DNA from: Limnothrix sp. BL-A-16
GTDB taxonomy: Bacteria > Cyanobacteriota > Cyanobacteriia > CACIAM-69d
Assembly (NCBI GenBank): GCA_041937175.2
Contig: CP166615.1
Location: 2,336,001-2,400,000, forward strand
Direction of reading: 5' to 3'
DNA: 64,000 bases
Each line of letters starts with the position of its first letter. Position 1 is the stretch's first letter. Below, piece by piece: positions 9,241 through 64,000 of the stretch. The position numbers and the translations under genes were made by a program. Below the pieces are notes generated by a model that was given only the letters and a program-made list of their open reading frames with translations, was not told where the DNA came from and searched no databases.

Positions 9241-9294
9241 TCCAGATTTGGCTTAGTGATGGTGGTTGAGATTTTTGGGATCCCAACCGGATCC

Positions 9295-11778
9295 TTAGCG
9301 CAATTCCACTTGCAATTGCAGCGATCGCAAGTTGGCCGGAGCATTGGCCCAACGCAGCAGCACTTGCCGGAATTGGGCTGCTTGCTCAGGGGTCAGGGCA
9401 CTGGAAACCGTGTCATCCCAAACCACACCCACCACGGAACCACGTTCCAGGGTGAGGGTAACCACGAACGTCCCCCGCAGGCTAGCTGGCAAGTTGTGTT
9501 TTAGGTATTGCGTGAGCTGCTCGATCGCCTGTTGATCCAAGCCCGGGGCGCTGGCAATCTGCACCGTGGGGCCCGTTGGCAAAGGAGACGTAAGATCGCC
9601 ATTCACCTCTCCAGCGGGCGGCGGCGGGGCGATCGGGAGGGGCGCGGGTTGCCAGCCGCTGCGGCCCCCTTGGCCACCCGTGCGGCGCGGGGGAGCACCC
9701 ACCGATCGGGCCGCCTCGGAGCGATCGGCTGCCCCAAAGAACCCTTCGTAGCTGGTTCCTTCTGGCAATTCCACAGGCACGGTCACCCGCTGGGTTGAAC
9801 CATCCGGATTGACCCGCACTTCCTCACTCACGGCTACAAAGGCGGTGTATTGAGACAAAACCCGATAGGCCAAGGAGGTTTCAACCACCCGATCGACCAG
9901 GGATTTCACCTCATTGCCATAGAGCTGATTCATGAGGTCTTTGATCCGGGAGCGGGCCCACAGTTGAGCAATGGCCGGCCGATCGCTCTGGTTAAACTCC
10001 ACCTTGAACCGCTGCTCAAAGGGTTGATTACCGGCGGTTTTGCCCGTCACAATCAGGGTTCCGGGAGCACGATCGCCCTTGCGCCCAAAGATCACCAGGG
10101 GTTGCGCCGCAAACAGATCCGGCGCGGCGGCCGGATAAATTTCGGGCCCGGGGCCCGGCCCTTCCCAACGCACCCGCACTTCCGTGAGCACCGGGTTGGC
10201 AATTTGGCGAAAGAATTTTTCCACGGGGGCTTCGGTGGTTTCGTCTTGGCGCACCACTTGCAGGGTTCCGCGTCCCACTTCCGCCAGGCGATCGAGCAAA
10301 AAGCGGTTGACGGAGCTGCCCACCCCAAAGCTAAACAGCCGATTCCCGGGCTTCAGATTGCGTTGAACGCTGGCGATCACCTCCCGATCGTTGCCAATGT
10401 AGCCATCGGTCAGCAGCACCACACTCCGCAATCGCCCCGCTTCGGCCGCTGGAAACCGCAACATTTCATCAATGCCCGCTTGCAGATTAGTCCCGCCGTT
10501 GGCTTGCAGGGCTTCAACGTAGCCCAAGGCTCGCTGTCGGTTGGCGGCGGTGTTGGCCAAGGGGCGATCGGACAAGCGCGTGGCCGCATTGGCAAAGTCA
10601 ATGATCGTGAAGGTGTCGTTGGGATTCAGGCCATTGATGAAACGGCGCATCAATTCCTTGGATTTGGCCAAGGGTTGCCCCTGCTGGGAGCCGGAGGTGT
10701 CCATCAAGAACACCACGTCCTTGGGCACGATCGCCCGTTGGGGATAACCAATTGCCGGGATCAGATATAGCCCAAAGAAACCGCCCCGATCATCCCCTTG
10801 GGTGAGCACGCTGGCTTGGGTATTAGCCCCCGCCACCCGATAGCGCAGGATGAAGTCTTTGTTGGGAATCGAGTCCGCTGGGGACAGTTGCACGGCGGTG
10901 AAGCGCCCTTTGCCGGTGAAGTCGATTTTGTGGGAGGGCGATCGCACCGCCTCGATCGGCACGCCCGCATCGATCGACAGTCGGAGGATGATGTCATGGC
11001 CCGATCGACTGCCGGGGGGCAACACTGGCGGATTAATCCGCGAACCATCGGGCACTTGATCCGTGTTGCCATTGGGGTTGCCATTGGGGCCGATCGGGTT
11101 GCCGGGGTTATATCGCGGCCCCACCACCATCGGGAACACAAATTCATAATCCCCCCCTTCAAACCTCAGGGATTCGGTGTATTGAATGGTGACTTGGATC
11201 GCTTCCCCGGGACGAATGTTGGCCAAAGATTGGGTGAAAATATTATCGCGCTCTTGCTCCAGCAGTCCGGCCGTGCGCCCCTCTTGGCGGGCTTGCTCAT
11301 AAATTTGGCGGGCTTCTTCGCGGGTTTTTAAATCGCCCTTAATCACCCGATCACCAATCCGAATTTCCATATCATCCACGGCGGCATTTTCCGGCAGTGG
11401 AAAGACATAAACCGCCTCCAAAGGGCGATCGAACGGATTGGTAAAGGTCTGTTGCACCGTCACCCGCGACAGGTTGCCGGTCACCTGGGCGGTCACCTCG
11501 GTTTTATCCAACACAAACCGATCGAGCGAGCCATCGGGATTCGGGGCATAGAGACCGCCCACCGGGCGATCGGGCTGGGGCGAAACCATCGGGCGGCCCT
11601 CCGGAGGCATCCGTTGTGTTAAATGAGCAGCGGGAGCAACCGTGGGGCGAGTCATGGCATCGGTTGTGGGTATCGATCGCGCCATCACGGGTGTTGATGA
11701 TTGGACGATCACCCCGCCCGCCGCCAGCACCACCATCCACCCGATCGCCGTCATTTGCTTACTCATTTCGATCCCCAT
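9295..11778 (-). CDS. VIT + von Willebrand A domain protein with probable signal peptide
   Basis: VIT domain (LEAVYVFPLPENAAVDDMEIRIG), MIDAS DTSGS, VVLLTDGYIG, FGVGSSVNRFLL. Confidence 0.92.
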   Translation of the reverse strand: MGIEMSKQMTAIGWMVVLAAGGVIVQSSTPVMARSIPTTDAMTRPTVAPAAHLTQRMPPEGRPMVSPQPDRPVGGLYAPNPDGSLDRFVLDKTEVTAQVTGNLSRVTVQQTFTNPFDRPLEAVYVFPLPENAAVDDMEIRIGDRVIKGDLKTREEARQIYEQARQEGRTAGLLEQERDNIFTQSLANIRPGEAIQVTIQYTESLRFEGGDYEFVFPMVVGPRYNPGNPIGPNGNPNGNTDQVPDGSRINPPVLPPGSRSGHDIILRLSIDAGVPIEAVRSPSHKIDFTGKGRFTAVQLSPADSIPNKDFILRYRVAGANTQASVLTQGDDRGGFFGLYLIPAIGYPQRAIVPKDVVFLMDTSGSQQGQPLAKSKELMRRFINGLNPNDTFTIIDFANAATRLSDRPLANTAANRQRALGYVEALQANGGTNLQAGIDEMLRFPAAEAGRLRSVVLLTDGYIGNDREVIASVQRNLKPGNRLFSFGVGSSVNRFLLDRLAEVGRGTLQVVRQDETTEAPVEKFFRQIANPVLTEVRVRWEGPGPGPEIYPAAAPDLFAAQPLVIFGRKGDRAPGTLIVTGKTAGNQPFEQRFKVEFNQSDRPAIAQLWARSRIKDLMNQLYGNEVKSLVDRVVETSLAYRVLSQYTAFVAVSEEVRVNPDGSTQRVTVPVELPEGTSYEGFFGAADRSEAARSVGAPPRRTGGQGGRSGWQPAPLPIAPPPPAGEVNGDLTSPLPTGPTVQIASAPGLDQQAIEQLTQYLKHNLPASLRGTFVVTLTLERGSVVGVVWDDTVSSALTPEQAAQFRQVLLRWANAPANLRSLQLQVELR

Positions 11779-51301: not shown

Positions 51302-53140
51302 TTACGACGTTTTTCGAGGGAGGCGGCGCGAGGCCCTTGGGGAGCGATCTCCCTGTCGCAACCGGGCGGCTCGATCGAGTAGGGAATCGGCAAAGGCATT
51401 GGCCGCCGCTAGGGTTTCTGTGGAACCCGCCGGGCCGTCGAGGCCCCCGGCCAGTTGGGCCAACTCCAGCCGACGATGTTCGGCTCCCAAGGAACTGAGG
51501 CGCACCACGGTGCGGATGCCTTCCCCATCCCCTTGATCGGCCACCGACTCGGCCAGCGGGGTGCTAATCGTCACCTTGGCCACGCGGAAGTGATGATCGG
51601 CCATGGCCGCCACGATCGGCTGGTGCGTCACGCAAAGCACCTGGTGATCTTGGCTGAGGTGATGGAGTTTTTGGGCGATCGCCTGGGCCACCCGCCCGGA
51701 AACCCCCGCATCAATTTCATCAAAAATCGCCGTTTGTACCTGGCTCACCTGGGAAAAACAAGCTTCAAACGCCAGCAAAAAGCGGCTCATTTCCCCACCG
51801 GAAGCCGTTTCGCTCAGGGGTTGCAAGGGTTCTCCGGGGTTAGGACTGAAGGTGTAGGTGATTCGATCGAACCCGGCCGACGAAGGGGGAACCCGCCCAA
51901 ACTCCACAGCGAACTGCACCCGCTCCATGGCCAGGGGAACCAATTCCGCCACCAGTTGTGTTTCCAGATCCCGCGCGGCCCGGCGACGCAGTTGATGCAG
52001 GCGATCGCACTCGGTTTCAAGGGCTTGATAGGCCGCTTGGTATTGGTGCTCCAAAGACTCCAGGGACTGCCCCCCGTCCGTCAACTCCGCCACCCACTGG
52101 TCCAGCTCATCGCGCCGCGCAATCAGAGCACCCAGATCGAGGTTATATTTCCGGCAAAGGGCCTTGAGTTGCATGATCCGCTCCTCCACCCACTCCAGCC
52201 GATCGGGATCGCTTTCCAGGCTGGCTCCGTAGGCGTTGATTTGCAGCCCCGCCTCCGTGACCTGGGTGAGGGCGCTGGTCACCATCTCCAAAATGGCTTC
52301 CACCTGTCGATCGAACCGGGCCGATCGCTCCAGTAGGGCTTCCGCCTTGCCCAACAGTTCCGCGCAGGAAGCCGCGTCATCGGCCCCGGCATAGAGCAAC
52401 TCATAGGCTTGGTAGCTCTGTTGTTGCAAATCCACCACATGGGTCAGGCGATCGCGCTCTTGCTCCAGGTCAGCCAGTTCCTGCGCTTCCGTGAGGGCCG
52501 CCGCCATTAACTCCTGCAACTGGAATTGATAAAGATCGAGTTGCTGTTGTCGCTGGGCTTCCTGTTGGCGGCGGTTGCTCAGTTGCAGCCACAATTCTTG
52601 GGCCCGGTCATAGGCTTTGGCCACGGCCGATCGCTGCTTCAAAATTGGTGCGCCGCCAAATTCATCCAGCCAATCTCGCTGGGATTCTGCCTGCAGCAAT
52701 TGCACCGTTTGCCCCTGGGCAGCAATGGTCACCAATCGATCGCGCAGGATGGCCATGCGGGCCTTGGGGATGGGTTGCCCATTGCAACGAAACCGGCTGC
52801 GCACCGTGCTGCGGCCGCCTTTGCCTCCATCGCTATTGCCGGGACTGCTGACAATTTCCACGCTGCAAACCAGCCGATCGCCTGTCATATCCCATTGCTG
52901 CACCTTCAGCCAGTCCCGCAGCGATCGATCAATGGCAAAGGTCGCCTCGATTTCTGCCCGATCACAGCCTGTGCGGATCGATCGGGCCGTGATCCGCCCG
53001 CCCAACACCGCCTCGATCGCATCGAGAATAATCGACTTGCCCGCGCCCGTTTCTCCCGTCAGCACATTCAGCCCGGGCCCAAGGGTCACTTCCAGCGCAT
53101 CCACCAGCGCAAAGTTTTCAATCCGCAATGACAGCAGCAT
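51302..53140 (-). CDS. recN: DNA repair protein RecN
   Basis: IENFALV, TGETGAGKS, ASGGEMSR, IFDEIDAGVSG, CVTHQP. Confidence 0.96.
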   Translation of the reverse strand: MLLSLRIENFALVDALEVTLGPGLNVLTGETGAGKSIILDAIEAVLGGRITARSIRTGCDRAEIEATFAIDRSLRDWLKVQQWDMTGDRLVCSVEIVSSPGNSDGGKGGRSTVRSRFRCNGQPIPKARMAILRDRLVTIAAQGQTVQLLQAESQRDWLDEFGGAPILKQRSAVAKAYDRAQELWLQLSNRRQQEAQRQQQLDLYQFQLQELMAAALTEAQELADLEQERDRLTHVVDLQQQSYQAYELLYAGADDAASCAELLGKAEALLERSARFDRQVEAILEMVTSALTQVTEAGLQINAYGASLESDPDRLEWVEERIMQLKALCRKYNLDLGALIARRDELDQWVAELTDGGQSLESLEHQYQAAYQALETECDRLHQLRRRAARDLETQLVAELVPLAMERVQFAVEFGRVPPSSAGFDRITYTFSPNPGEPLQPLSETASGGEMSRFLLAFEACFSQVSQVQTAIFDEIDAGVSGRVAQAIAQKLHHLSQDHQVLCVTHQPIVAAMADHHFRVAKVTISTPLAESVADQGDGEGIRTVVRLSSLGAEHRRLELAQLAGGLDGPAGSTETLAAANAFADSLLDRAARLRQGDRSPRASRRLPRKTS

Positions 53141-53375
53141 GGACCGTTGATTAACCCCACTCGCCTAGCGCTCTCCTAGCTTAAGGCGTGTCGCCTACCA
53201 GGTCGAAAGGCTTGGCAACCGGGAAAGGCTTTCGGCGGCCTATGTTGATCCAGTCGGCCCAGCGGAATGGACGAGAAAACCGAAACAGAACTGATCGTGA
53301 CCCGCAACCAACGAAAACCAGATCGCCGTAGGGGTTGGGAAACCCAACCCTGACCTGAGCGATCGCGACTTTTCA

Positions 53376-53502
53376 GAGGATGTCTGAGAAGTATCTTTCA
53401 ATATGGGCTGAAGATTAATTGTCGTAGAAGGGGCTTGAGCATCTTGTCTACATCGATCTCTGGGGCGTACAGAGTAGCAATTTTGGCTTTTCAGACATCC
53501 TT
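53376..53502. mobile_element. MITE-like family B copy (127 bp) with TCA target duplication
   Basis: TIR GAGGATGTCTGAGAAG...CTTTTCAGACATCCTT; TCA on both flanks; variant core AAGGGGCTTGAGCATCTTG. Confidence 0.85.
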
Positions 53503-53524
53503 TCAGGTATTGATCAAATATCGA

Positions 53525-54670
53525 TCAAGGGCGCTGTTTCAAATAGGTTTCAATGGCTTGCCGAATATCTTGAGAAAATTGCTCCGTTGAAAACAGTTGA
53601 GCCTGTTTTTCAAGGGCCGATCGCATTCGGTTTTGCAGCTCCGAAGAGGACAGCAGAGCCACAATTCTAGCCACCGCTTCCTCATCATTGGCGAACATCA
53701 ATTCTTTGTTCTGTTCTCCGACAATTTCCACCTGGCCACCGCCCCGATCGCGCACAAAGGGAATCGTTCCCACCTTCACCATTTCCGCGATCGAAATGCC
53801 AAAGGGTTCCTTTTTCCAGTGGAGTCCATAGCGGCAACGGGACAGCACATTCACATAATCGGCATAGCTCAAGTTTTCGTAAAGGGTCACCCAATCGGCA
53901 TTTTCATCAATTTTTTGTTGTAAAAATTGCCGATATTTTTGACCATAAACCCCGCCACCACCGCCTGTGAAATAGAGCTTGATCGGAAAACCCTGATCGC
54001 GCACCCGCTTCAAAATTTCCAGCACCCGATGCGGTTCCTTGGCTTTGGTCAAGCGCCCACTACAGATAAAGGCTTCTTCGCGATCGGGCCAAGCCACCGT
54101 CGGCGCATCCACAGCCACGGGCGGATAAACCACCACCGGTTGGCCGCCATACCGCTCCTGAGTCACCGTGGCCACCATCCGTGAATTGGCGATCGACCAA
54201 TTGCGCCGCATTCTGGCTTCTGAAAACTGCGAAACCCAATAGAAATTCCGATTTTCTAAGACACCCACCCAATGGACATATTGCACCCCATCGCAGCCCA
54301 AATCAATCGCGTTGTAGCCAGAAACTGCCAAGTTATATTGCCGACTAAATTTCTTGAAAAATCGGATGCAAAAGTGGCAAAAAAACTTACGAAAAAACTG
54401 ACTATTGGCGATTAGAAATTCCACCAAATTCTTGAAGGGCGCTGGAATGCAATGGCGCACTTGCACCCGATCGGACAGTTGGGTTCCATAGAGCTGATTT
54501 AACCGATTGAGGTCGAGCGGGGTCAGTGTAAATAATGTCAAGTCATAGTCTGCCTGCAACGCATTCAACATCCACAGGGTCACGGCTTCCGCTCCCCCAC
54601 CCGCAAAAAACGGATAAAAAACCGCGATCGTGGTGGGAGTTTGGGGGCGGGGGTGTTGTTCTGAGGTCAC
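53525..54670 (-). CDS. Glycosyltransferase family 4
   Basis: GGGAE N-terminal motif, VVYPPV, SGRLTKAK, EPFGISIAE. Confidence 0.9.
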   Translation of the reverse strand: MTSEQHPRPQTPTTIAVFYPFFAGGGAEAVTLWMLNALQADYDLTLFTLTPLDLNRLNQLYGTQLSDRVQVRHCIPAPFKNLVEFLIANSQFFRKFFCHFCIRFFKKFSRQYNLAVSGYNAIDLGCDGVQYVHWVGVLENRNFYWVSQFSEARMRRNWSIANSRMVATVTQERYGGQPVVVYPPVAVDAPTVAWPDREEAFICSGRLTKAKEPHRVLEILKRVRDQGFPIKLYFTGGGGGVYGQKYRQFLQQKIDENADWVTLYENLSYADYVNVLSRCRYGLHWKKEPFGISIAEMVKVGTIPFVRDRGGGQVEIVGEQNKELMFANDEEAVARIVALLSSSELQNRMRSALEKQAQLFSTEQFSQDIRQAIETYLKQRP

Positions 54671-54857
54671 GATGAAAAACCAATGAGCGACGAGCGATCG
54701 ACCCGGCCAAGCAGCGGGCCCAGGTCGGGGGCCAATCCACGGGGCGATCGGCTGGGGCCATTATCGCCTAGCCTAACTTTCCCCTCTTTGCCCGCCAAGG
54801 ATTCAGCCAACCGGACAATTCCCCCAGGACGCTCGCTCCGATCATTTCGATCATTTT

Positions 54858-54949
54858 TTGACAATCATCGGTAACCCGATCGGGAAAGTGGACTTTTTAA
54901 GACAGGAGTGATACCATGCACTGCATTAAACGGTAATCCGATCGGAAAA
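54858..54949 (+). promoter_or_regulatory. TTGACA followed by two copies of CGGTAAYCCGATCGGRAAA (54869-54887, 54931-54949): candidate operators
   Basis: Near-identical 19-mers 62 bp apart upstream of the sulfurtransferase. Confidence 0.6.
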
Positions 54950-54999
54950 CCGGTCTTTATAGATCCAAGCAGTTCAAGGGCAAATGAGGGTTTCGACAA

Positions 55000-55995
55000 A
55001 TGGGCAGAATCAATGGCAGCGATCGTTGGACAAAACGAGCGTCTCGGCGTTGGCACTTCACAACCTGGCTGTGGGGCATGTTGGCGATCGCCCTTGTGGT
55101 GTTGTTGCCCACTTGGGCCTTGCCCGCCGTCGCCAATGCTCCCAAGGCGAAAATTGAATTTGTGTCACCCCAGTGGCTCAGCCAACATTTGAGTGATACC
55201 AACTTGCGCGTTTTGGATGTACGCAACTCGCCCCTGGACTACATCGGGGGCCATGTTCCCGGCGCTGTGCATATTGCGGATTTAGCCTTTCGCGGCCCCG
55301 ATGGCTTTTTGCCGGTGCAATATTGGGACAACGAAAAAATCGCATCGCTCTTTGGCAAAGCCGGGGTTAACAATCGCCAAAAGGTCGCCGTTTATTCCAA
55401 CGGTAATGACGTGTTAGGCGCAACCATGGTGGCCTACTTGCTGGAGCGATCGGGAGTCAAAGACATTGCGATCGTGGATGGCGGTTTTGCCGGTTATCAG
55501 GCCTCGGGCCAAACCGTCACGAAGGAATATCCCCGGTACGATCGGCAAACATTCCAACTCAAAGACGATCCCTCCGTTCGCGTCGCCCTGGCCGATGTGC
55601 GGAAATTAATTGGTCAACCCAACGTAGTTTTCATTGACCCGCGCCCTCCGGAATTATTCAGCGGTGAAAAACCCCTTTGGGTGCGAAACGGTCACATTCC
55701 CGGTGCCAGAAACATTCCTTGGCCCACCTTTACCGAAGCCAACAATTCCCAGGAAGCGCTCAAGAATCCCCACAAGCTGAAATCCTTGGATGAAATTCGG
55801 CAAATTCTGGCCAGCCGTAACATCACTCCCGACAAGCAAATCATTGTTTCTTGCAGCACTGGGCGGGAAGCTACCTTGCAATATGTAGTGCTGAAGCATC
55901 TTTTGGGCTATCCCAATGTGCGTATTTACGAAGGGTCTTGGACTGAGTACAGCACCACTGATTTACCGGTGGAAACTGGCCCCGATCGCGCCTAG
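55000..55995 (+). CDS. Tandem-domain rhodanese/sulfurtransferase with signal peptide
   Basis: VSPQWL...LDVR, GHVPGA, GHIPGA, active-site CSTGRE, YEGSWTEY; hydrophobic N-terminus ending AVANA. Confidence 0.93.
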   Translation: MGRINGSDRWTKRASRRWHFTTWLWGMLAIALVVLLPTWALPAVANAPKAKIEFVSPQWLSQHLSDTNLRVLDVRNSPLDYIGGHVPGAVHIADLAFRGPDGFLPVQYWDNEKIASLFGKAGVNNRQKVAVYSNGNDVLGATMVAYLLERSGVKDIAIVDGGFAGYQASGQTVTKEYPRYDRQTFQLKDDPSVRVALADVRKLIGQPNVVFIDPRPPELFSGEKPLWVRNGHIPGARNIPWPTFTEANNSQEALKNPHKLKSLDEIRQILASRNITPDKQIIVSCSTGREATLQYVVLKHLLGYPNVRIYEGSWTEYSTTDLPVETGPDRA

Positions 55996-56154
55996 GAATT
56001 AATCCAAAGTTGACTGAACATTCAGTCCAGGATTTGGATTCTTTGGGTCGATTGTCAAAATTGGTCAATCTTAAACCCGTTGATCAGCATTGATCAGGGA
56101 CTGATTGACCAAGCCCCTTGATTCAAAATTACAGCCTTTACCTAGCTCAAGCCT

Positions 56155-56178
56155 GTAGGGCAGGCAATGCCTGCCTAC
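56155..56178. repeat. GTAG-type REP-like hairpin (GTAGGGCAGGCAATGCCTGCCTAC)
   Basis: Starts GTAG, ends CTAC, internal palindrome; a related GTAGGGGTTGGGAAACCCAACCC lies near 53327. Confidence 0.5.
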
Positions 56179-56299
56179 TCACTGCTTCATACCCCCTGTG
56201 ATGTGACGCACCAATCGTTCTAGGTCAAGGCTGTATGAATCGGCCAGCCTGAATTTTCTGCCAATTATTGCCCCAACCGAAGAACAAGGAGAGATAAAA

Positions 56300-56827
56300 A
56301 TGGCGCTATTTTTGGTTGAAGCATCGATTTTGAATCGGCATGTGGATGAAATTCGCACCGCTCTAGACCAAGTATCGAAGGCTGCACAGGCAACCCATTC
56401 AGAATTGATTGAGGCACAAATTGGTAAGGATCTTTTTCGACTCTTCGCCATCCTCAATGCCCAAGATGAAGTATCAGTACGCGCGGCTTTTTTGAATAGT
56501 AATCTGACGATCGAACTAGTTAAACCCGTGCGCTTGGTGGGGCAAGACCTGACTGTCGTTAGAACCCAAAAGGACAAGGCTAATTACCTTGTGGAATGGG
56601 ATTTGCCAGCGGGGCTGACGATGGACAAGTATTTGCAACGCAAGGCTGAAAAATCTCTTCTTTATGCTCAAGTTCCAACGGTTTCCTTTGAGCGAACCTA
56701 TGTTTGCGAGGACTTGAGTAAATGCCTCTGTTTTTATGACAGTCCCGATGAGGCAACGGTGAAGCAAGCGCGCGAGGTGGTGGGTGCGCCCATCGATCGG
56801 CTCACCAGTCTGGAAACGCTGGACTAA
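56300..56827 (+). CDS. DUF4242-domain protein
   Basis: YLVEW...F.RTYVCED.SKCLCFYDSPDE..V..AR motif; AAGGAGA RBS. Confidence 0.85.
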   Translation: MALFLVEASILNRHVDEIRTALDQVSKAAQATHSELIEAQIGKDLFRLFAILNAQDEVSVRAAFLNSNLTIELVKPVRLVGQDLTVVRTQKDKANYLVEWDLPAGLTMDKYLQRKAEKSLLYAQVPTVSFERTYVCEDLSKCLCFYDSPDEATVKQAREVVGAPIDRLTSLETLD

Positions 56828-56914
56828 GACTCAGGTTAATGCCCGGGAAAATGACCAATTTAGGGTCGATTTAGGTCGGTAATTTTGTAGGCAATCATTC
56901 TGTAGGCAATAGAT

Positions 56915-58153
56915 GTGAATACTGGTGTTGTCGATCCACAGGCAATCCGGGCTTTGCTGGCGGAGCAAGCCCAAGCAGTAAATGATGGCGAGGGTTACCG
57001 AGACAGTCGGAACTCATTGCGGCTGTTGGCATCGGTTGGCTGGCTCGGGCTGGGCATTCCCGAGCGCCAAGGCGGGACGGGGGGCACGCGTTTGGATGCC
57101 ATTGAGGCGATCGCCCAAACGGCAGAGGACTGCTTAACCAGCGCCTTCGTGTTTTGGTGCCAGCGAGCCTTTGCGGAATATTTGGTGGCCAGTGATAACG
57201 ACAAGTTGCGCCAAACCCTTCTGCCCCAGGTGGTACGGGCCGATCGCTTCGGTGCGACGGGTTTATCGAACGCCATGAAGCATTTGGCCGGCATTGAGGC
57301 CTTGCGGGTACAAGCCCGTTGGCAGGGGCAACGGTTACGCCTGGATGGCCATTTGCCCTGGGCTTCTAATTTGGTGCCGGGTGAGTTTTTGGTGGCGGTA
57401 GCGGCGGAAACCCCTGAGGGGGAAGCGATCGTGGCGGTGATTCCGGCGAATACCCCGGGCCTGTCGCGTAGTGCGGATTTGGATTTGTTGGGGCTGCGTG
57501 GTTCCAACACGGCGGCCTTAACCCTAGAAGGGGTGGAGGTTGATCGCACTTGGGTTTTGAGCGATCGGGCAAGGCAGTTTTTGCCGACTATTCGACCGGC
57601 ATTCTTGCTGTTGCAGTGCGGTTTGAGTTTGGGCAAGGCTCGATCGGCTCGGCGGGCGATTCGCAACACGCTCCAAACCCGATCGCAGGTCTTGCGGGGA
57701 GCCTTGCAGCAGCTTGATCACCGCTATGACGAGTTGGCCACGCAACTGCGGCAATTGGCGGCGCTCTCCGAGTTTTCCTTCGCTGAAACCCGACATCTAT
57801 TTGAAGTCCGCATTGCCTTAACTCGCCTGGCTGTGGATGCCATCACGTTGGAGTTGGAAGCGCAGGGGGGCGGGGCCTATCTCAACGACCATGCAACGGC
57901 CCGACGCTGGCGGGAAGTGGCGTTCTTGCCGGTGCTCACCCCCAGCTTGGTGCAACTGGAAACGGAACTGGCCCGCGTCACTCCCACCACCGCGATCAAC
58001 CCGGCGATCGAACCAGCCATCAGCCCCACGATCCACAACCCCTCCCGTACAACCCTGACCGCTGCCCCCGTTCTGGCTACGGGGGCCATTCCACCGTCGA
58101 TCGCCAAAGCCGCCGCGAGTCGATCGCCCTCCCGATCGGAGGTCAGGCGATGA
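56915..58153 (+). CDS. Acyl-CoA dehydrogenase-fold flavoprotein
   Basis: CLTSAFVFWCQR, GATGLSNAMK, LPWASN, LLGLRGSNTA, ELEAQGG.AY...RRWREVAFLP..TPS.VQL. Confidence 0.9.
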   Translation: MNTGVVDPQAIRALLAEQAQAVNDGEGYRDSRNSLRLLASVGWLGLGIPERQGGTGGTRLDAIEAIAQTAEDCLTSAFVFWCQRAFAEYLVASDNDKLRQTLLPQVVRADRFGATGLSNAMKHLAGIEALRVQARWQGQRLRLDGHLPWASNLVPGEFLVAVAAETPEGEAIVAVIPANTPGLSRSADLDLLGLRGSNTAALTLEGVEVDRTWVLSDRARQFLPTIRPAFLLLQCGLSLGKARSARRAIRNTLQTRSQVLRGALQQLDHRYDELATQLRQLAALSEFSFAETRHLFEVRIALTRLAVDAITLELEAQGGGAYLNDHATARRWREVAFLPVLTPSLVQLETELARVTPTTAINPAIEPAISPTIHNPSRTTLTAAPVLATGAIPPSIAKAAASRSPSRSEVRR

Positions 58154-59136
58154 GTGAGTTGCTGCCGGTGACCGTGGGCCGATCGCCGGATCTGTGGGAG
58201 TCCGGTGAATTACCCGATCGCGTCAATGCCTCAATTTTGCGATCGCCCCCATCGACCGCGCCTCAACCCACCGCACCTCAACCCGGTGTCGCCAACGCTG
58301 CCGCCGATCGGGAGACGGATCGCCCATTGCTGACCGTGCGGGGGTTAACCCATCACTACCCAGTAGGACGCGATCGAGTCCTGGCCTTCGCGCAAATTAA
58401 CCTCGACCTTCGCCCTCGGGAGTTGGTTTGCCTGCTGGGCCCCAGCGGTTGCGGCAAGTCTTCGCTGCTGTTGGCCATTGCCGGTTTGCAACGGGCCACG
58501 GCAGGGGAAGTGCGGCTGAAGGGTCAACCCATCCAAGAGCCACAACCATCGGTGGGCATGGTGTTTCAGGGGTCGGCCTTGCTGCCCTGGTTAACGGTAA
58601 CCCAAAACATTACCTGGGGCTTGAAGTTACGGCGAATGCCGGCCATTGCCAAAGCAGTTGCCCGATCGCGGGCGGCCGAAGCCTTAGCCAGCGTTGGCTT
58701 AGGGGGCGTTGAACGGGCCTATCCTCACCAACTCTCGGGAGGAATGGCGCAGCGGGTGGCCCTGGCGCGGGCCTTGGTGCGGCAACCGGAACTGCTGCTG
58801 TTGGATGAGCCGTTCAGCGCCTTGGATGCGATTACGCGCCGATCGATGCAAGCGTTGCTGCTTCAGGCGATCGCCCGCTACCCAGCAGCCGTGTTAATGG
58901 TCACCCACGACATTGATGAGGCCTTGGCCCTAGGCGATCGGGTGGTGTTGATGGATCGCAATCCCGGGCGGATTCGTCGCCAGTGGATTTTGCGATCGCC
59001 CCCCACAGACCCCAACGATCGCTCCCTGCGAGATCCCGCCGCCCAAGGGGCCCTGCGTCGCGAAATTTTAGAGGAGTTGTTAACCGTGATTGACCCTGTT
59101 GTTCCGCCCTCGATCACGAGAGGTGTGCAGCCATGA
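58150..59136 (+). CDS. ABC importer ATP-binding subunit (SsuB/TauB/NrtD-like)
   Basis: GPSGCGKSS, LLPWLTV, LSGGMAQR, LLDEPFSALD, VTHDIDEA; ATGA overlap with previous gene. Confidence 0.95.
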   Translation: MSELLPVTVGRSPDLWESGELPDRVNASILRSPPSTAPQPTAPQPGVANAAADRETDRPLLTVRGLTHHYPVGRDRVLAFAQINLDLRPRELVCLLGPSGCGKSSLLLAIAGLQRATAGEVRLKGQPIQEPQPSVGMVFQGSALLPWLTVTQNITWGLKLRRMPAIAKAVARSRAAEALASVGLGGVERAYPHQLSGGMAQRVALARALVRQPELLLLDEPFSALDAITRRSMQALLLQAIARYPAAVLMVTHDIDEALALGDRVVLMDRNPGRIRRQWILRSPPTDPNDRSLRDPAAQGALRREILEELLTVIDPVVPPSITRGVQP

Positions 59137-60455
59137 CGCGCGATCGCCAAGCCCGCGCTCGATCGAGCCGCGCCACCCCCCATTGGATTGCGCCCCCCTT
59201 TGCCAGCGGCCCCACAGCCGGCCTGGGTTGCGACTGCTGCGGCCTCAGCCGACGAGATTTCCTGCAACTCACAGGGCTATTCTCAGCCTCCCTGGGGGCA
59301 ACCCTGGCCGTCGGGGGTTGCCAGCCAACCCAAGGCCCCGCTCAATCTAGCCCCGCTGCTTCAGCCCCTGCGACACCAACGGCCCAACCCCCGGTCAAAA
59401 TTGGCTACCTGCCCATCACCGATGCGGCTCCCCTGTTGGTGGCCCATGCCCGCGAGCTATACCAAGCGGAGGGACTAACGGCCGAAAAACCAACCCTCTT
59501 TCGCTCTTGGCCGCAGGTGGTCGAAGCGTTTTTGGCCAGACAGGTCAATGTCATCCATATCCTGATGCCCGCCACCTTGTGGTTGCGCTATGGCCGCAAG
59601 TTTCCGGCCAAGATTGTGGCTTGGAATCACACCAATGGCTCAGCCCTGACCGTCTTGCCGGAAATTGATCGCCTGGAAGACCTGGGCGGTCGCAAGGTGG
59701 CTGTGCCCTTTTGGTATTCAATCCACAACGTGGTGCTACAGCAACTGCTGAAGAAAGCGGGACTGAAGGTGGTGCGGCGGCCCAAAGAGGCCCAGGTAGC
59801 CGCCAATGAGGTGAATTTAATTGTGCTGCCGCCACCGGATATGGTTTCGGCCCTCGCCAACAAAGCGATCGCGGGCTACATCGTGGCGGAACCTTTCAAC
59901 GCGGCGGCGGAAAACCTCAAAACAGGCAAAATTCTGCGCTTTACCGGGGATGTGTGGAAGGATCACGCCTGCTGTGTGGTGCTGATGCATGAAGACGACC
60001 TCACCCAGCATCCCGATTGGGCGCAGCGGGTGGTGCAGGCGATCGTCAAGGCCCAGCATTGGAGCGGCGAAAACCGCGCAGATGTGGCTGAAATTTTGTC
60101 GAAGGAGGGTGGCAAATATACGCCTCATCCCAAAGCGGCCCTGATGCGGGCCCTAACGGCCTACGACCCAGCCGTTTATCAAGCCCAAGGGGCGATCACC
60201 CATCCCGATTGGCAAATCGATCGAATTGATTTTCAACCCTATCCTTTTCCGTCCTACACCGCTGAGCTGGTGCGCCTGCTCAAGGAAACCCAAGTGGAAG
60301 GAGAAACCCAGTTTTTACAGGATCTTGACCCCGAGTGGGTGGCCCAAGATTTGGTGGATGACTCCTTGGTGAAGGCGGCCCTGGCAGCGGTGGGCGGCCC
60401 CGCTGCCTTCCGGCTGCCGGAAAACCTGACCCGCAAGGAAACGATTGCGCTCTGA
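59133..60455 (+). CDS. ABC substrate-binding protein (NrtA/CmpA/SsuA family), probable Tat lipoprotein
   Basis: SRRDFL Tat motif, LAVGGC lipobox, IGYLPITDAAPL, WNHTNGS, VAEPF, HACCV. Confidence 0.93.
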   Translation: MTRDRQARARSSRATPHWIAPPFASGPTAGLGCDCCGLSRRDFLQLTGLFSASLGATLAVGGCQPTQGPAQSSPAASAPATPTAQPPVKIGYLPITDAAPLLVAHARELYQAEGLTAEKPTLFRSWPQVVEAFLARQVNVIHILMPATLWLRYGRKFPAKIVAWNHTNGSALTVLPEIDRLEDLGGRKVAVPFWYSIHNVVLQQLLKKAGLKVVRRPKEAQVAANEVNLIVLPPPDMVSALANKAIAGYIVAEPFNAAAENLKTGKILRFTGDVWKDHACCVVLMHEDDLTQHPDWAQRVVQAIVKAQHWSGENRADVAEILSKEGGKYTPHPKAALMRALTAYDPAVYQAQGAITHPDWQIDRIDFQPYPFPSYTAELVRLLKETQVEGETQFLQDLDPEWVAQDLVDDSLVKAALAAVGGPAAFRLPENLTRKETIAL

Positions 60456-60658
60456 AGCTTTGGGGATCACCCCATCCAGCTCGCTTCAGTGCCAATTTCG
60501 CCGGGTCAGTTCCCGATCGATAGATCACAGTCATGCCGAGTCATGCCGATCTCGATTCACGCCGAGTTCGGGGAAGGGTGGCCAACGATTCCACCCATTG
60601 ACCCCACTCATTCAGCATCGTCAAGACAAGCATTAGGCATTGGAGGGATTGAGCGGCC

Positions 60659-61465
60659 ATGGCGGTTGGAATGTGGCAAAAAGCAGGGCGATCGGGCGTT
60701 GCTCGACAACTTCGCGGCGTGTTGGGGATCGTGAGTAGCCCCTTGCTTGGCCTGCTGCTGGGGCTGCTGTTGTGGTGGGTGCTCACGTCCCCGCTGTTGC
60801 ATCCCGGCGCGATCGTGGGGGACTTTTCACCAGAAAAATCGCTCACCACCGTCCTGAAACTGCTGGGTGACGGCACTTTGGAACCCCACATTGGCGCAAG
60901 TTTACGGCGTGTCGTGATTGGCTTAGCCACCGCCGCCCTGATTGGGATTCCCGTTGGCATTGCCCTGGGGCTGTGGCGGCCCCTGGAGCAGGGCACGTCT
61001 ATTCTGTTCCAGTTTGTGCGGATGGTGTCGCCCCTGTCTTGGATGCCGCTGGCGGTGATGGCCTTCGGGATTGGGGATGCGCCCGTGTACTTTCTGCTCA
61101 CCGTGGCGGCGGTTTGGCCCGTGTTGCTGAATGCGGCGGCGGGAGTGCATAGCGTCGATCGGCGCTGGTTGTTGCTAGCCCGCAGCCTTTGTGCAACCCG
61201 TTGGGAGGTGATTGGCCGGGTCATTTTGCCCGCGATCGGGCCACATCTCCTGGTGGGGCTACGCCTCGCGGTCGGCGTGATTTGGATCGTGTTAGTGCCC
61301 GCCGAAATGTTAGGGGTTAGCTCAGGCTTGGGCTACTTCATTTTGGACACGCGCGATCGCTTGGCCTATAGCGAGTTGATGGCGGCCATTTTGACCATTG
61401 GCGCGATCGGCTATGGGCTGGATGCCGGGTTGCGATCGCTCAATCGCCTCACCCATTATTCCTAG
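60659..61465 (+). CDS. ABC importer permease (SsuC/NrtB-like)
   Basis: SLRRV..G, RMVSPLSWMPL, EAA-like loop ARSLCAT, LVPAEMLG.SSGLGY. Confidence 0.93.
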   Translation: MAVGMWQKAGRSGVARQLRGVLGIVSSPLLGLLLGLLLWWVLTSPLLHPGAIVGDFSPEKSLTTVLKLLGDGTLEPHIGASLRRVVIGLATAALIGIPVGIALGLWRPLEQGTSILFQFVRMVSPLSWMPLAVMAFGIGDAPVYFLLTVAAVWPVLLNAAAGVHSVDRRWLLLARSLCATRWEVIGRVILPAIGPHLLVGLRLAVGVIWIVLVPAEMLGVSSGLGYFILDTRDRLAYSELMAAILTIGAIGYGLDAGLRSLNRLTHYS

Positions 61466-61617
61466 TCCCTGTTGATAGAATTCAGTCAAGCCATAGTCAG
61501 TGAAACCACAAAGAAACTGTGATGTTTAGGCTGATTCTTTTTTGGACATTCTGAATAGCTAATTTCAGAAAAATTTTGAATGATTGCAACAAACCTCAAT
61601 CCTCAATTCTAAATATC

Positions 61618-61977
61618 ATGAGTATTCAAGAAATCATTTCAGGACAAGCAATTTCAGAAATCACACCCGAGACACTCGACCAATGGTTGAAGACTCAAAA
61701 AATCACCTTAATCGATGTGCGAGAATTTCAGGAATTTGAGACAGAGCATATTGCTGGCGCTGTTTTGCAACCCTTGAGTCAACTGAACGGGTTAGATTGG
61801 AGCGCTGAATTGGGAACGGTGGTGTTATATTGCCGCAGCGGCAGACGATCGGCTGAAGGAGGTCAACGACTCTTGCGCGATCGCAATCTACCGTTGGTGC
61901 ATCTGAGAGGAGGAATTTTAGCTTGGAAAGCAGCGGGTTATCCAACCGTCGTGAAGAATGAAAGCGATTCAATTTAG
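61618..61977 (+). CDS. Single-domain rhodanese
   Basis: LIDVRE..EF..EHIAGA, active-site loop YCRSGRRS, LRGGILAW. Confidence 0.9.
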   Translation: MSIQEIISGQAISEITPETLDQWLKTQKITLIDVREFQEFETEHIAGAVLQPLSQLNGLDWSAELGTVVLYCRSGRRSAEGGQRLLRDRNLPLVHLRGGILAWKAAGYPTVVKNESDSI

Positions 61978-64000
61978 TTCTGCAAAGTCATTTAATTTTG
62001 GAGAGGCAAGTCACCAAAATCCTGAATGGGATGGTGAAGAATCTGAATTTGGCACTTCACTCAAAATTGGGGTGTTAGCCAACCGAGGATTAAAGATTGC
62101 TGAGTCCATGTGGCAACCAACGGCTGATTATTTATCGGCCGTTGTTTCTGGTCGCGAATTTACAATGGTTCCCCTCAGCTTTGATGATATTCATCAAGCC
62201 ATTGCCAGCCAATCCGTACAGTTTGCCATTGTTAATCCGGGGCTGTATGTGGAGTTTGAAACACAATTTGGCCTGAACCGAATTGCCACTTTGAAAACGC
62301 TGCAATTGGGAAAACCGGCAACGGAATTTGGCGGCGCAATTTTTAGTCGGCGCGATCGCCTGCCCATGACTCAGTTGTCGGATTTGAAGGGGCGATCGGT
62401 GGCGGCGGTGGCGGAAACCTCCCTGGGGGGATGGCGGATGGCGTGGCGGGAATTGGTCGAAGCGGCGATCGATCCCTATCGAGATTTTGCGGCGCTGGAG
62501 TTTTTGGGGAGCCACGATCGGGTGGTGGCCGCCGTGCAATCGGGCCAAGCAGAAGTGGGAATCGTTAGCACCCATGTTTTGGAACAGCTCGCGGGCACGG
62601 GGGCACTGGACTTAAGCACCATTCAAATTCTGCCGCCTCCGGCGATTGTGCCGTCGGAGTTGCCCTTTGCCCTCAGCACTCGGCTTTATCCGGAGTGGCC
62701 CTTTGCCGTTTTGCCCAGGGTTCCTCGGGCGATCGCGGAGGCGGTGACCATTGCGCTGTTGCAGATGCCCGCTGACGCGCCCGCGGCCCAAGCGGCTGGG
62801 GCGGCCGGTTGGACAATTCCCCTGAATTATCAGTCAGTGCATGAATGTTTCCAAGTGCTGCAAGTGCCACCCTATCGGGACTTTGGGCGCACCACGGCGA
62901 GCTTTGCCCTGGCGGTGAAGGGATCCCATGATGGTCTGTGGGATTGGATGGTGGAAACGGGCCGAACGCTGTTTTCTGATCGCTGGGCAGCTTTGTTGGG
63001 CTATCAACCCGCAGACATTCCGCCCCATGTTGATCAATGGTTCGATCGATTGCATCCCGACGATCGCGATCGATTCACTCAGGCCTTAAGCCAATTTTTT
63101 GCCAGCGATCGAACCCAATGGGAGTTGGAATATCGCCTGCGACATCGTGATGGTTCCTATCGCTGGGTGTTGTGCCGAGGAACCTTGCAACGGAACTATC
63201 AAGGGCGACCCTACCGCATGGCCGGTTCCCACACCGATATTACCAATCGTAAACAGGTGGAAGACCAGCTCCGAACGTCCAAAGTCCATTTACAAGAAAA
63301 GGCACAAACCCTGCAAGCCACCTTGCAAGAGTTGCAATCAACCCAACTCCAACTCATTCAGGCAGAAAAAATGTCGAGCCTCGGTCAGTTAGTGGCGGGA
63401 ATTGCCCATGAATTGAATAATCCTGTCAGTTTTATCTATGGCAATATGCGCTATCTCGAAGAGTATGCTTCGGAGCTGGTGAAGATTATTCAACTTCTAA
63501 AAAAACACCAAGAATCGCCTCATTTGCAAGAAGAAATCCTTGATCAACTCGATCTAGATTTTATTCAGACTGACTTACCCAAGCTGATTACCTCAATGAA
63601 GACTGGCACCGATCGCATTCGATCGCTAGCCCTGTCTCTGCGTAATTTTTCAAGGGTTGACGAAGCGGAGATGAAGGCAGTGGACTTACATGAGGGGTTG
63701 GAAAGTACGCTTTTGATTTTGCAGCATCGACTCTTACCCTCTTTAAAGGGCTTAGAGATTCAAATCGATCGCCAATATGGTGATTTGCCGCTGGTGGAGT
63801 GCTATCCCGGGCAAGTGAACCAGGTTTTTATGAACTTACTCAGCAACGCAATTGATGCCCTTGAAAGTCAGTTTCAGCCGTTGGCCTATGGGGTTTCCGA
63901 TCGCGAGGATTCTGTGAAACTCGTTCCCAAAATCACCATTCAAACGGTTGTGGAAGATCATGAGGTGGTGGTTAAAATTACCGATAACGGCACGGGCATT
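61958..64000 (+). CDS. Sensor histidine kinase with N-terminal PhnD-like (TtrS/ThsS-type) binding domain + PAS; 3'-truncated by window edge; absent from ORF track
   Basis: Manual translation from ATG 61958: KIGVLANRG..WQPTADYL, NPGLYVE, FGGAIF, SLGGW, SHDRVV, STRLYPEWPFA, GWTIPLNYQSVH; PAS DGLWDW; EKMSSLGQLVAGIAHELNNP; VNQVFMNLLSNA; DNGTGI. Confidence 0.92.
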   Translation, partial: MKAIQFSSAKSFNFGEASHQNPEWDGEESEFGTSLKIGVLANRGLKIAESMWQPTADYLSAVVSGREFTMVPLSFDDIHQAIASQSVQFAIVNPGLYVEFETQFGLNRIATLKTLQLGKPATEFGGAIFSRRDRLPMTQLSDLKGRSVAAVAETSLGGWRMAWRELVEAAIDPYRDFAALEFLGSHDRVVAAVQSGQAEVGIVSTHVLEQLAGTGALDLSTIQILPPPAIVPSELPFALSTRLYPEWPFAVLPRVPRAIAEAVTIALLQMPADAPAAQAAGAAGWTIPLNYQSVHECFQVLQVPPYRDFGRTTASFALAVKGSHDGLWDWMVETGRTLFSDRWAALLGYQPADIPPHVDQWFDRLHPDDRDRFTQALSQFFASDRTQWELEYRLRHRDGSYRWVLCRGTLQRNYQGRPYRMAGSHTDITNRKQVEDQLRTSKVHLQEKAQTLQATLQELQSTQLQLIQAEKMSSLGQLVAGIAHELNNPVSFIYGNMRYLEEYASELVKIIQLLKKHQESPHLQEEILDQLDLDFIQTDLPKLITSMKTGTDRIRSLALSLRNFSRVDEAEMKAVDLHEGLESTLLILQHRLLPSLKGLEIQIDRQYGDLPLVECYPGQVNQVFMNLLSNAIDALESQFQPLAYGVSDREDSVKLVPKITIQTVVEDHEVVVKITDNGTGI

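Follow-up and report, generated by a model that had tools for sequence, protein, structure and literature searches.

The 64,000-nt window analyzed here (Limnothrix sp. BL-A-16, contig CP166615.1, positions 2,336,001 to 2,400,000) carries at its 3' end a block of eight genes, all of them on the plus strand where the first-pass annotation had placed them. They encode an exported tandem rhodanese, a tandem DUF4242 protein, a flavoenzyme with the acyl-CoA dehydrogenase (ACAD) fold, the ATPase, binding protein and permease of an ATP-binding cassette (ABC) importer, a small rhodanese and a sensor kinase. These eight genes are a single island that varies between strains, and the block is probably an accessory sulfur-scavenging system of three modules, in which the operon of the DUF4242, ACAD-fold and importer genes is the conserved engine.

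The conserved core and its sulfur context

As a single query, the ACAD-fold protein gave no confirmed relatives; an alignment of 17 sequences of its family retrieved 570 confirmed relatives from the genome collection, of which the best 80 loci were examined. The ACAD, ATPase, binding-protein and permease genes follow each other in this order in 77 of these loci, two more being cut by contig ends and one holding the ACAD gene alone, and the ATPase gene lies 3' of the ACAD gene in 79. The window has the same order on a single strand, which is that of PA2327–PA2330 in Pseudomonas. The parallel with PA2327–2331 drawn in the first-pass annotation is borne out by this order and by identities of 43–49% for the ACAD-fold protein and 53–60% for the binding protein, the latter being 53–71% identical across phyla. 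The exception among the 80 loci comes from Pantanalinema rosaneae (L027, positions 8968–10029), where an ACAD-family gene of 52–53% identity stands alone, with neither the importer nor DUF4242 beside it and with genes for TerC, a cadmium transporter and PEP mutase as neighbors; a further member of the family (P0033) comes from this species.

The gene upstream of this core is of two kinds. In 13 of the 80 loci it encodes a tandem DUF4242 protein, directly 5' of the ACAD gene as in all loci of the cyanobacterial type, and these loci belong to cyanobacteria (including Microcystis, Raphidiopsis, Alkalinema and Pannus), to one metagenome-assembled genome (MAG) of the Armatimonadota and to unclassified MAGs. 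In all 66 loci of the proteobacterial type (Pseudomonas, Achromobacter, Cupriavidus, Sideroxydans and others) a CMD/AhpD-like protein of about 185 residues with the motif HGCxFCVxGH is encoded 27–174 nt upstream on the same strand, and an AraC-type regulator lies nearby in 65 of them. One Cys-rich partner, DUF4242 or AhpD-like CxxC, has been non-homologously replaced by the other; in the window, where DUF4242 occupies this place, tblastn gave no match to a CMD/AhpD-like CxxC gene better than E 0.13. In a sample of 401 cyanobacterial genomes, the DUF4242-type core is present in 10 (6 of 156 genera).

The neighbors of the core in the cyanobacterial loci, as identified by Pfam, belong largely to sulfur metabolism. 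TauD adjoins the core in L001, L006 and L123. Near the core are also an SsuD-like luciferase-type monooxygenase, an FMN reductase and an SsuA-like protein in L001, a sulfate-binding-protein-like protein (SBP_bac_11) with a CysA-type ATPase bearing TOBE in L005, cysT, cysW, cysA and a Crp-type regulator in L122, a sulfatase in L123, a CysK-like protein with a chromate/sulfate-type transporter in L092, and methionine-salvage genes in L003. A clade-D beta-carbonic anhydrase (beta-CA) gene separates the binding-protein gene from that of the permease in L001, L002, L003 and L006, lies directly 5' of DUF4242 in L123 and is found nearby in L005; in L002 and L003 it is followed, still inside the operon, by TauE-type permease genes. 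The PDB relatives of this beta-CA include a carbonyl sulfide (COS) hydrolase (3vqj, 2.7e-31) and a CS2 hydrolase (3.9e-27), although ordinary carbonic anhydrases match better (6e-43).

Expression of the Pseudomonas counterpart points in the same direction. According to supplementary file 3 of PMC12581299, the RNA of PA2327–PA2331 rises by log2 3.17–3.62, about 9–12-fold, in sulfur-starved PAO1, and PMC8466066 reports that PA2328–30 drop together with cys and ssu genes in a PA2504 mutant. PMC10687435, citing Frangipani 2014, assigns PA2328–31 to a set of 12 genes that endogenous HCN induces. The Tat signal of PA2328 is described in PMC6085387 as experimentally validated, and the N-termini of the binding proteins in the Pseudomonas loci nearly match the sequence given there. 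The first-pass annotation had proposed uptake and processing of a sulfur compound, and for the core this is supported by the sulfur neighbors and the starvation induction. It had also described PA2327–2331 as a system with no assigned substrate, and full-text literature searches, which reached neither Frangipani 2014 nor the older papers on rhdA and cysR of Synechococcus, agree with it in that no paper assigning a substrate to PA2327–2331 or to a cyanobacterial counterpart was found.

The ACAD-fold protein matches Pfam and NCBIfam families only far under their cut-offs, and its model (pLDDT 83.2) has the three-domain ACAD fold, with true ACADs as best Foldseek matches (TMq 0.67–0.76, 17–21% identity); this fold search could not tell dehydrogenase from monooxygenase. 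The catalytic Glu of IVD, within DLERLVL, aligns with an Ala of the family profile, and in the 17-sequence alignment T342-P343-S344 is invariant, a triplet that, judged by motif spacing, would occupy the position of YEGT in ACADs; the HMMER alignment itself ends 8–10 residues earlier. Because the catalytic Glu is replaced, the enzyme does not appear to be an ordinary ACAD, and its sequence argues that it is not a fatty-acyl-CoA dehydrogenase. SfnB, MsuC and DszC have the ACAD fold without the dehydrogenase base, and 3-sulfinopropionyl-CoA desulfinase (AcdDPN7) performs sulfur-releasing chemistry with an ACAD fold that lacks the catalytic Glu. The residues R84, K122, R227 and R243, invariant in the same alignment, would suit an anionic substrate. 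The C-terminal residues 358–412 (window 57990–58153) form a Pro/Ala/Ser-rich tail of about 55 residues that is modeled as disordered (pLDDT <50), is absent in 15 of 16 aligned homologues and is shared, among the proteins searched, only with the 96%-identical P0001. This tail runs into the start of the ATPase, which bears a similar low-complexity N-terminal extension.

The DUF4242 protein scores well above the gathering threshold of PF14026 (67.8 against 28.5 bits) through its C-terminal half, residues 96–169. Its N-terminal half goes undetected by Pfam, yet in the model (pLDDT 92.3) both halves show a beta-alpha-beta-beta-alpha-beta pattern, and the model consists of two ferredoxin-like repeats forming a double alpha+beta barrel. 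Fold searches return barrels of the HemQ, Cld and ABM types at TM 0.5–0.6, from which no function is assignable. The cysteines C136, C142 and C144, within YVCEDLSKCLC, are invariant in an alignment of 11 sequences, and we propose that the protein is the thiol- or sulfur-handling partner of the flavoenzyme. Its gene start is preceded by a good Shine-Dalgarno sequence. In the regions 5' of DUF4242 in L002, L003, L004, L005, L008, L009, L010, L122 and L126, several share boxes of the sigma-70 kind, TTGACA or TTGACT about 17 nt before TATCAT, and an AGTAAAC-like word recurs near the start, which is not clear in the corresponding region of the window. A regular expression for a strict NtcA/Crp-type pattern gave nothing consistent upstream of the DUF4242 genes.

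The importer genes belong to the NitT/TauT type, and their families are reached only at a broad level. The binding protein meets only the broad Pfam family NMT1_2 (159.6 bits); in NCBIfam its best match is SsuA_fam, with 102.8 against a cut-off of 163.5 bits, TauA has 31.4 against 490, and no equivalog cut-off is reached. Its relatives in the PDB are 3un6, NrtA (E 1.9e-14), CmpA (5.2e-10) and TauA. A Tat signal is recognized (TIGR01409, 19.8 bits, cut-off 16.7) in the sequence SRRDFLQ...LAVGGC, which ends in a lipobox-like motif, and the protein is probably lipidated.

The island and its modules

The limits of the block were defined by comparison with a genome of the same genus (G002). In blastn of its contig G002:C29 against the Limnothrix genome, an indel of about 9.6 kb was found, in which window positions 54844–64421 are replaced by about 46 nt, and the flanking DNA is 94.9% identical up to 54843 and 94.5% identical from 64422. 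Because the flanks of G002 align with only these 46 nt in place of the block, the whole of it has been gained or lost as a unit. In G002, the upstream glycosyltransferase (98% protein identity) and the downstream MTHFR (96%) are separated by only about 800 nt. In G002 and in a second genome of the genus (G001), orthologues of the ACAD-fold protein (best match 25% identity) and of the exported rhodanese (about 30% at best) are missing, and the sensor domain of the kinase has no match, every match beginning after residue 314. The grouping of the eight genes exceeds chance, given its all-or-none presence relative to G002. The features of the block are collected in the table.

Features of the island in the window, and the beta-CA genes of related loci (window coordinates unless a locus is given)
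Feature	Position	Strand	Basis
Strain-variable island, all eight genes	54844..64000, continuing to ~64421 (421 nt past window end)	.	blastn vs G002
Exported tandem rhodanese (RhdA-like)	55000..55995	+	PF00581, 2 stretches, E 6.4e-34
Strongly structured intergenic element, 126 nt, between rhodanese and DUF4242 genes	56120..56245	+	RNA fold
Tandem DUF4242 (SCO4226-like), 175 aa	56300..56827	+	PF14026, 67.8 bits
ACAD-fold flavoenzyme (PA2330 orthologue)	56915..58153	+	Pfam ACAD N-domain and modeled ACAD fold
ABC ATPase, NitT/TauT type	58150..59136	+	PF00005; PhnT2, TauB, NtrCD best in NCBIfam, all below cut-off
Tat-signal NMT1_2 binding protein (PA2328 orthologue), 440 aa	59133..60455	+	PF13379, E 1.6e-46
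ABC permease	60659..61465	+	PF00528; SaoP, NtrB, TauC matches all below cut-off
Single-domain cytoplasmic rhodanese	61576..61977	+	PF00581, E 1e-14; loop CRSGRRS
PhnD-like + PAS + HisKA + HATPase kinase, 759 aa	61958..64000, ends 64237 (237 nt past window)	+	Pfam
Clade-D beta-CA of related loci	L001 12466-13044; L002 8973-9575; L003 12319-12897; L006 12198-12821; L123 5811-6452; L005 5947-6588		

Recent horizontal transfer was considered as a strong claim and rejected: the density of HIP1 in the island genes is close to that of the window (mean 1.23 per kb), and that of CGATCG likewise matches the window. Since these densities equal the window average, the island does not look like a fresh foreign import. 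In a freshwater metatranscriptome (run X17), a contig of a close relative that covers window 53512–54826 exits at 54826 into the island-less junction of the G002 type, and island genes are represented, at 95–97% identity, by further contigs from this run. There are thus hints that island-bearing and island-less forms both exist in nature. On the 3' side of the island, rimM and MTHFR are encoded on the opposite strand, and genes for a pentapeptide-repeat protein and a protease follow; a serralysin-like RTX-repeat metalloprotease (Peptidase_M10 and HemolysinCabind) is found at L091 5265–6866, about 4.3–5.9 kb past the window end.

The island reads best as three modules: the exported tandem rhodanese, the DUF4242–ACAD–ABC operon, and the small rhodanese with a soluble PhnD–PAS kinase. 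Gaps of 304 nt (rhodanese to DUF4242) and 110 nt (permease to small rhodanese) separate them. The G+C content at third codon positions (GC3) is 0.60 in the exported rhodanese, 0.67–0.73 in the core (0.68 in the ACAD gene), 0.49 in DUF4242, 0.42 in the small rhodanese and 0.53 in the kinase. The gene overlaps at 58150/58153, 59133/59136 and 61958/61977 that had been noted earlier are present if the longest reading frames are used. The first two, of 4 nt each, depend on the choice of start, because the alignment with homologues begins only further in, near residue 54–60 in the ATPase and near residue 32 in the binding protein. A scan for promoters and terminators gave counts not above those of shuffled sequences (7 against 5.2 and 10 against 11.9), and no remnants of beta-CA, TauE, AhpC, CMD, TauD or SsuD genes were found in the window.

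The exported rhodanese has the two rhodanese domains, the catalytic Cys in the second of them and the N-terminal export signal that define the RhdA type: the catalytic Cys is missing from the N-terminal domain, CSTGREA stands in the C-terminal one, and the hydrophobic N-terminal signal (Kyte-Doolittle 19-residue mean 2.22 at residue 27) is followed by VANA. We take this family to be the one already known in cyanobacteria as RhdA of Synechococcus, which was reportedly described in 1991, in Synechococcus elongatus PCC 7942, as a sulfur-regulated periplasmic rhodanese. Orthologues of 52–74% identity occur in 32 of the 401 sampled cyanobacterial genomes (20 of 156 genera), and those in other core-bearing cyanobacteria are 64–70% identical. 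RhdA accompanies the DUF4242-type core in 9 of the 10 core-bearing genomes; counted by genus, it is present in 5 of the 6 that have the core, compared with 20 of all 156 in the sample. This co-occurrence is suggestive and stands as a count rather than a formal test, because the genomes are related and five of the ten belong to one genus. The two are adjacent in two genomes of the sample, that of the window (G000) and G052. In the latter (locus L122), a 70–72% identical rhodanese gene lies directly 5' of DUF4242 and the cluster stands beside cysTWA and the gene of the Crp-type regulator. The exported rhodanese therefore seems tied to the core statistically, and not obligatorily. In the gap that follows its gene, the structured element folds with -47.9 kcal/mol (z -5.09; none of 200 shuffles equally good) and could either terminate the rhodanese transcript or serve the operon as a leader; Rfam returned no family over 53000–64000 at E <= 0.1, the element included.

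The small rhodanese has no hydrophobic segment, and its gene overlaps that of the kinase by 20 nt. The first-pass annotation had described the kinase as a TtrS-like sensor, a description that does not hold: the TtrS model NF040750 is indeed its best match in NCBIfam, but with 160.5 bits against a cut-off of 750, and the protein has no transmembrane segment (maximum 19-residue Kyte-Doolittle mean 1.35, threshold 1.6) and lacks a receiver domain, nor is a response regulator encoded next to it. Because it is soluble and has a sensor resembling periplasmic binding proteins, it presumably senses an intracellular ligand. In L002, a 54–55% identical kinase, likewise without a membrane anchor, is encoded divergently from the core.

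The neighborhood survey covered 19 distinct loci of the DUF4242 type (L001–L013, L092, L122, L123, L125, L126 and L127; L124 duplicates the contig of L005, and L126 differs little from L127) and the 66 of the proteobacterial type. The exported rhodanese stands beside the core in one other of these loci, that of G052. The earlier argument for a sulfur substrate had been drawn from the flanks, that is, from the two sulfurtransferases and the sensor, and it largely falls, as these flanks are poorly conserved.

Proposed mechanism and alternative explanations

The current model proposes that, under sulfur limitation, a small sulfur-containing anion would be captured by the binding protein in the periplasm and imported by the NitT/TauT-type transporter, and that the ACAD-fold enzyme would then oxidize or cleave it at the sulfur. 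The Cys-rich partner, tandem DUF4242 here and AhpD-like CxxC in proteobacteria, would accept or reduce the sulfur product and feed it into cysteine synthesis. The exported RhdA-like rhodanese may contribute a companion scavenging activity, directed at sulfane sulfur in the periplasm. Together with the soluble PhnD–PAS kinase, the small rhodanese may form a strain-specific sensing pair, which would probably read an intracellular ligand; that this pair controls the operon is a conjecture.

Several observations weigh against an accessory sulfur-scavenging island of this kind. The profile of the ACAD family is nearest, in sequence and in fold, to genuine FAD-containing ACADs (IVD, E 7e-22), and the sulfur monooxygenases score lower with it (TdsC 7.3e-8, MsuC 2.8e-7, DszC 1.4e-6). 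No flavin reductase was found in the island by Pfam, NCBIfam or tblastn, as had been stated before, the rest of the genome lying outside that search. In the neighborhood survey, the small rhodanese stands beside the core in none of the other loci and the kinase in only one (L002). The sensor domain of the kinase is unmatched in five other core-bearing genomes, a comparison that had no positive-control genome and is therefore uninformative. In L122 (G052:C1:2640001-2660000), the transporter is partly deleted at 9206–10422 and the rhodanese, DUF4242 and ACAD genes are intact. The ATPase match there is confined to residues 58–234 and that of the permease to residues 79–263, and the binding-protein gene is absent, which resembles an internal deletion. 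Since G052 keeps the rhodanese–DUF4242–ACAD part with such a transporter, parts of the island can persist separately. At the protein level, supplementary file 4 of PMC12581299 gives no significant change for PA2328–31 in PAO1 (log2 0.17–0.63). As for transcription in this organism, three polyA RNA-seq runs labeled with its name gave 0 reads and provide no test, and the freshwater metatranscriptome gave only partial contigs, at 95–99% identity, from which neither transcription nor an operon structure can be deduced.

The first of the alternatives concerns the island as a whole, since three unrelated units might share it by chance, with the kinase regulating something else. The unconserved flanks, the gaps between the modules with a strong hairpin element in the first, the differences in GC3 among modules and the lack of a nearby response regulator would all agree with this. 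However, all eight genes are gained or lost jointly with respect to G002, RhdA accompanies the core in nearly all core-bearing genomes and adjoins it in a second genus, and the related kinase of L002 is also found beside the core. GC3 varies within the undoubted operon too (DUF4242 against ACAD), so that composition is no marker of module borders. Chance juxtaposition is therefore regarded as possible but rather doubtful. The other alternatives concern the substrate. The core could import a sulfonate, sulfinate or sulfate ester, from which an S-oxygenase with the ACAD fold that depends on reduced flavin, similar to SfnB, MsuC or DszC, or a non-redox desulfinase resembling 3-sulfinopropionyl-CoA desulfinase would release sulfite. 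In that sense, the ACAD-fold protein has weak NCBIfam matches to SfnB (1.8e-13), 3-sulfinopropanoyl-CoA desulfinase (1.2e-6) and DszC (3.7e-5), and lacks the catalytic Glu, as those enzymes do. SsuA_fam is the best match of the binding protein, and genes of the TauE sulfite-exporter type, inside the operon in L002 and L003, and TauD, SsuD and SsuE neighbors fit the same substrates. These scores are nevertheless far below their cut-offs (SfnB 50.1 against 430.9 bits, the desulfinase 27.5 against 600, DszC 22.7 against 850, and SsuA_fam as given above), the island has no flavin reductase, and both the Cys-rich partner and the induction by HCN would be left unexplained, so we consider an organosulfur substrate of this kind unlikely.

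Thiocyanate, or another one-carbon sulfur anion yielding COS or cyanate, has also been considered. In this case, the NrtA/CynA-like binding protein would take up SCN-, the flavoenzyme would oxidize it and the Cys-rich partner would capture the sulfur, while the clade-D beta-CA, where present, would hydrolyze COS or supply bicarbonate for cyanase, and the exported rhodanese would connect the system to cyanide and thiocyanate chemistry. Rhodanese converts cyanide to thiocyanate, Synechococcus elongatus PCC 7942 is reported to grow on thiocyanate as sulfur source, and rhodaneses are present in this island. The solved relatives of the binding protein, NrtA and CmpA, bind small planar or linear anions, and the beta-CA, with COS and CS2 hydrolases among its PDB relatives, lies in or beside the operon in six loci. 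However, no thiocyanate enzyme is known to have the ACAD fold, the best PDB matches of the beta-CA are ordinary carbonic anhydrases, the only beta-CA of the strain's own genome, located elsewhere, is 27% identical, and the literature search gave no paper tying these genes to thiocyanate. Because neither the island nor any of the 66 proteobacterial-type loci has a beta-CA, the idea is held to be improbable. The same low probability applies to the whole of its widest form, a previously unrecognized cross-phylum pathway in which the DUF4242 or AhpD-like protein, the ACAD-fold enzyme and the ABC importer would assimilate thiocyanate or a related COS- or cyanate-yielding anion through new flavoenzyme chemistry, a Cys-based sulfur acceptor and, in some cyanobacteria, a beta-CA of the COS-hydrolase type, coupled in this strain to periplasmic and cytoplasmic rhodaneses and a cytoplasmic ligand-binding kinase. 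The HCN response bears on this and on one further explanation: in this cyanide producer, the induced set comprises, according to PMC10687435, only 12 genes, far fewer than a broad response to sulfur starvation should recruit, which favors a thiocyanate-type substrate. The same response would also agree with a core that detoxifies reactive sulfur, cyanide-derived or oxidant species, its induction by sulfur starvation being secondary. Thiol-redox partners fit such a defense: the AhpD-like CxxC protein is encoded in all 66 proteobacterial-type loci, and L006, L092 and L123 have genes of the AhpC/TSA type in the vicinity of the core. PMC7950407 describes another AhpD-like protein of P. aeruginosa, RclX, as responding to HOCl and HOSCN, and PMC12581299 reports antioxidant genes co-induced by sulfur starvation. 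Nevertheless, an ABC system that depends on a binding protein is an importer and suits nutrition over detoxification, the neighbors are overwhelmingly sulfur-acquisition genes, and Table 6 of PMC10687435 gives no significant NaOCl phenotype for single mutants in PA2328, PA2330 and PA2331; stress defense is thus very improbable as the primary role.

An accessory sulfur-scavenging island with a conserved core is the reading retained here. Sulfate-starvation regulons still hold operons without an assigned substrate, and PA2327–2331 is one of them, with an induction that equals that of ssu and tau genes in strength. Cyanobacteria, Armatimonadota and proteobacteria all possess the same engine, often with a COS-hydrolase-like enzyme at its side; its Cys-rich partner has been swapped, and here it resides on an island that is gained and lost. 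This gives concrete substrate candidates that can be tested, and a natural pair of strains with and without the island for comparison of phenotypes. To our knowledge, how non-specialist bacteria and bloom-forming cyanobacteria acquire sulfur from thiocyanate-like compounds is a gap in current knowledge. If thiocyanate or a similar compound were the substrate, the system would explain this part of their sulfur supply, Microcystis and Raphidiopsis included.

Comparison with known systems

The kinase resembles TtrS of the TtrS/TtrR system in having a PhnD-like sensor followed by a histidine-kinase core, but it lacks membrane segments, which would place its sensor in the cytoplasm, and carries an additional PAS domain, and neither an adjacent TtrR-type regulator nor ttrBCA is present at the window locus. 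The exported tandem rhodanese is like RhdA of S. elongatus PCC 7942; unlike it, it is joined in an island to the DUF4242–ACAD–ABC operon. With NrtABCD, CmpABCD and CynABD, the system shares the NMT1_2 fold family and a Tat-type, lipoprotein-like signal of the binding protein. This relationship is distant only (NrtA at E 1.9e-14), the ATPase of the window lacks the regulatory domain of NrtC and CmpC, and loci of this type stand in a sulfur context and not in one of nitrogen or carbon.

AcdDPN7 has in common with the ACAD-fold enzyme of the window both the fold and the lost catalytic base, and the invariant Arg of the window enzyme (R84), in a pocket-lining helix of the N-domain, is a putative equivalent of the desulfinase Arg. 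The two differ in that the PDB match spans only profile positions 6–71, and no CoA-ligase or CoA-transferase genes accompany the core here. The Ssu, Tau, Msu and Sfn systems and DszC likewise combine an importer of the NitT/TauT type with a flavoenzyme, and share sulfur-starvation control with the Pseudomonas orthologues of the core. The window system differs from them by equivalog scores far below the cut-offs, by the lack of a flavin reductase gene in the island, by the additional Cys-rich partner and by a binding protein that is NrtA-sized and has a Tat signal. The closest counterpart is PA2327–PA2331, with which Tat export of the binding protein is shared; in the Pseudomonas loci this protein is 54–60% identical to that of the window. 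Its upstream partner, PA2331, is CMD/AhpD-like with a CxxC motif instead of DUF4242, and loci of its type nearly always have an AraC-type regulator nearby and neither rhodanese nor histidine kinase. The core is of the kind in which an importer and a flavoenzyme are induced together by sulfate starvation, and it is distinct by its swapped Cys-rich partner and by its variability at the level of a whole island.

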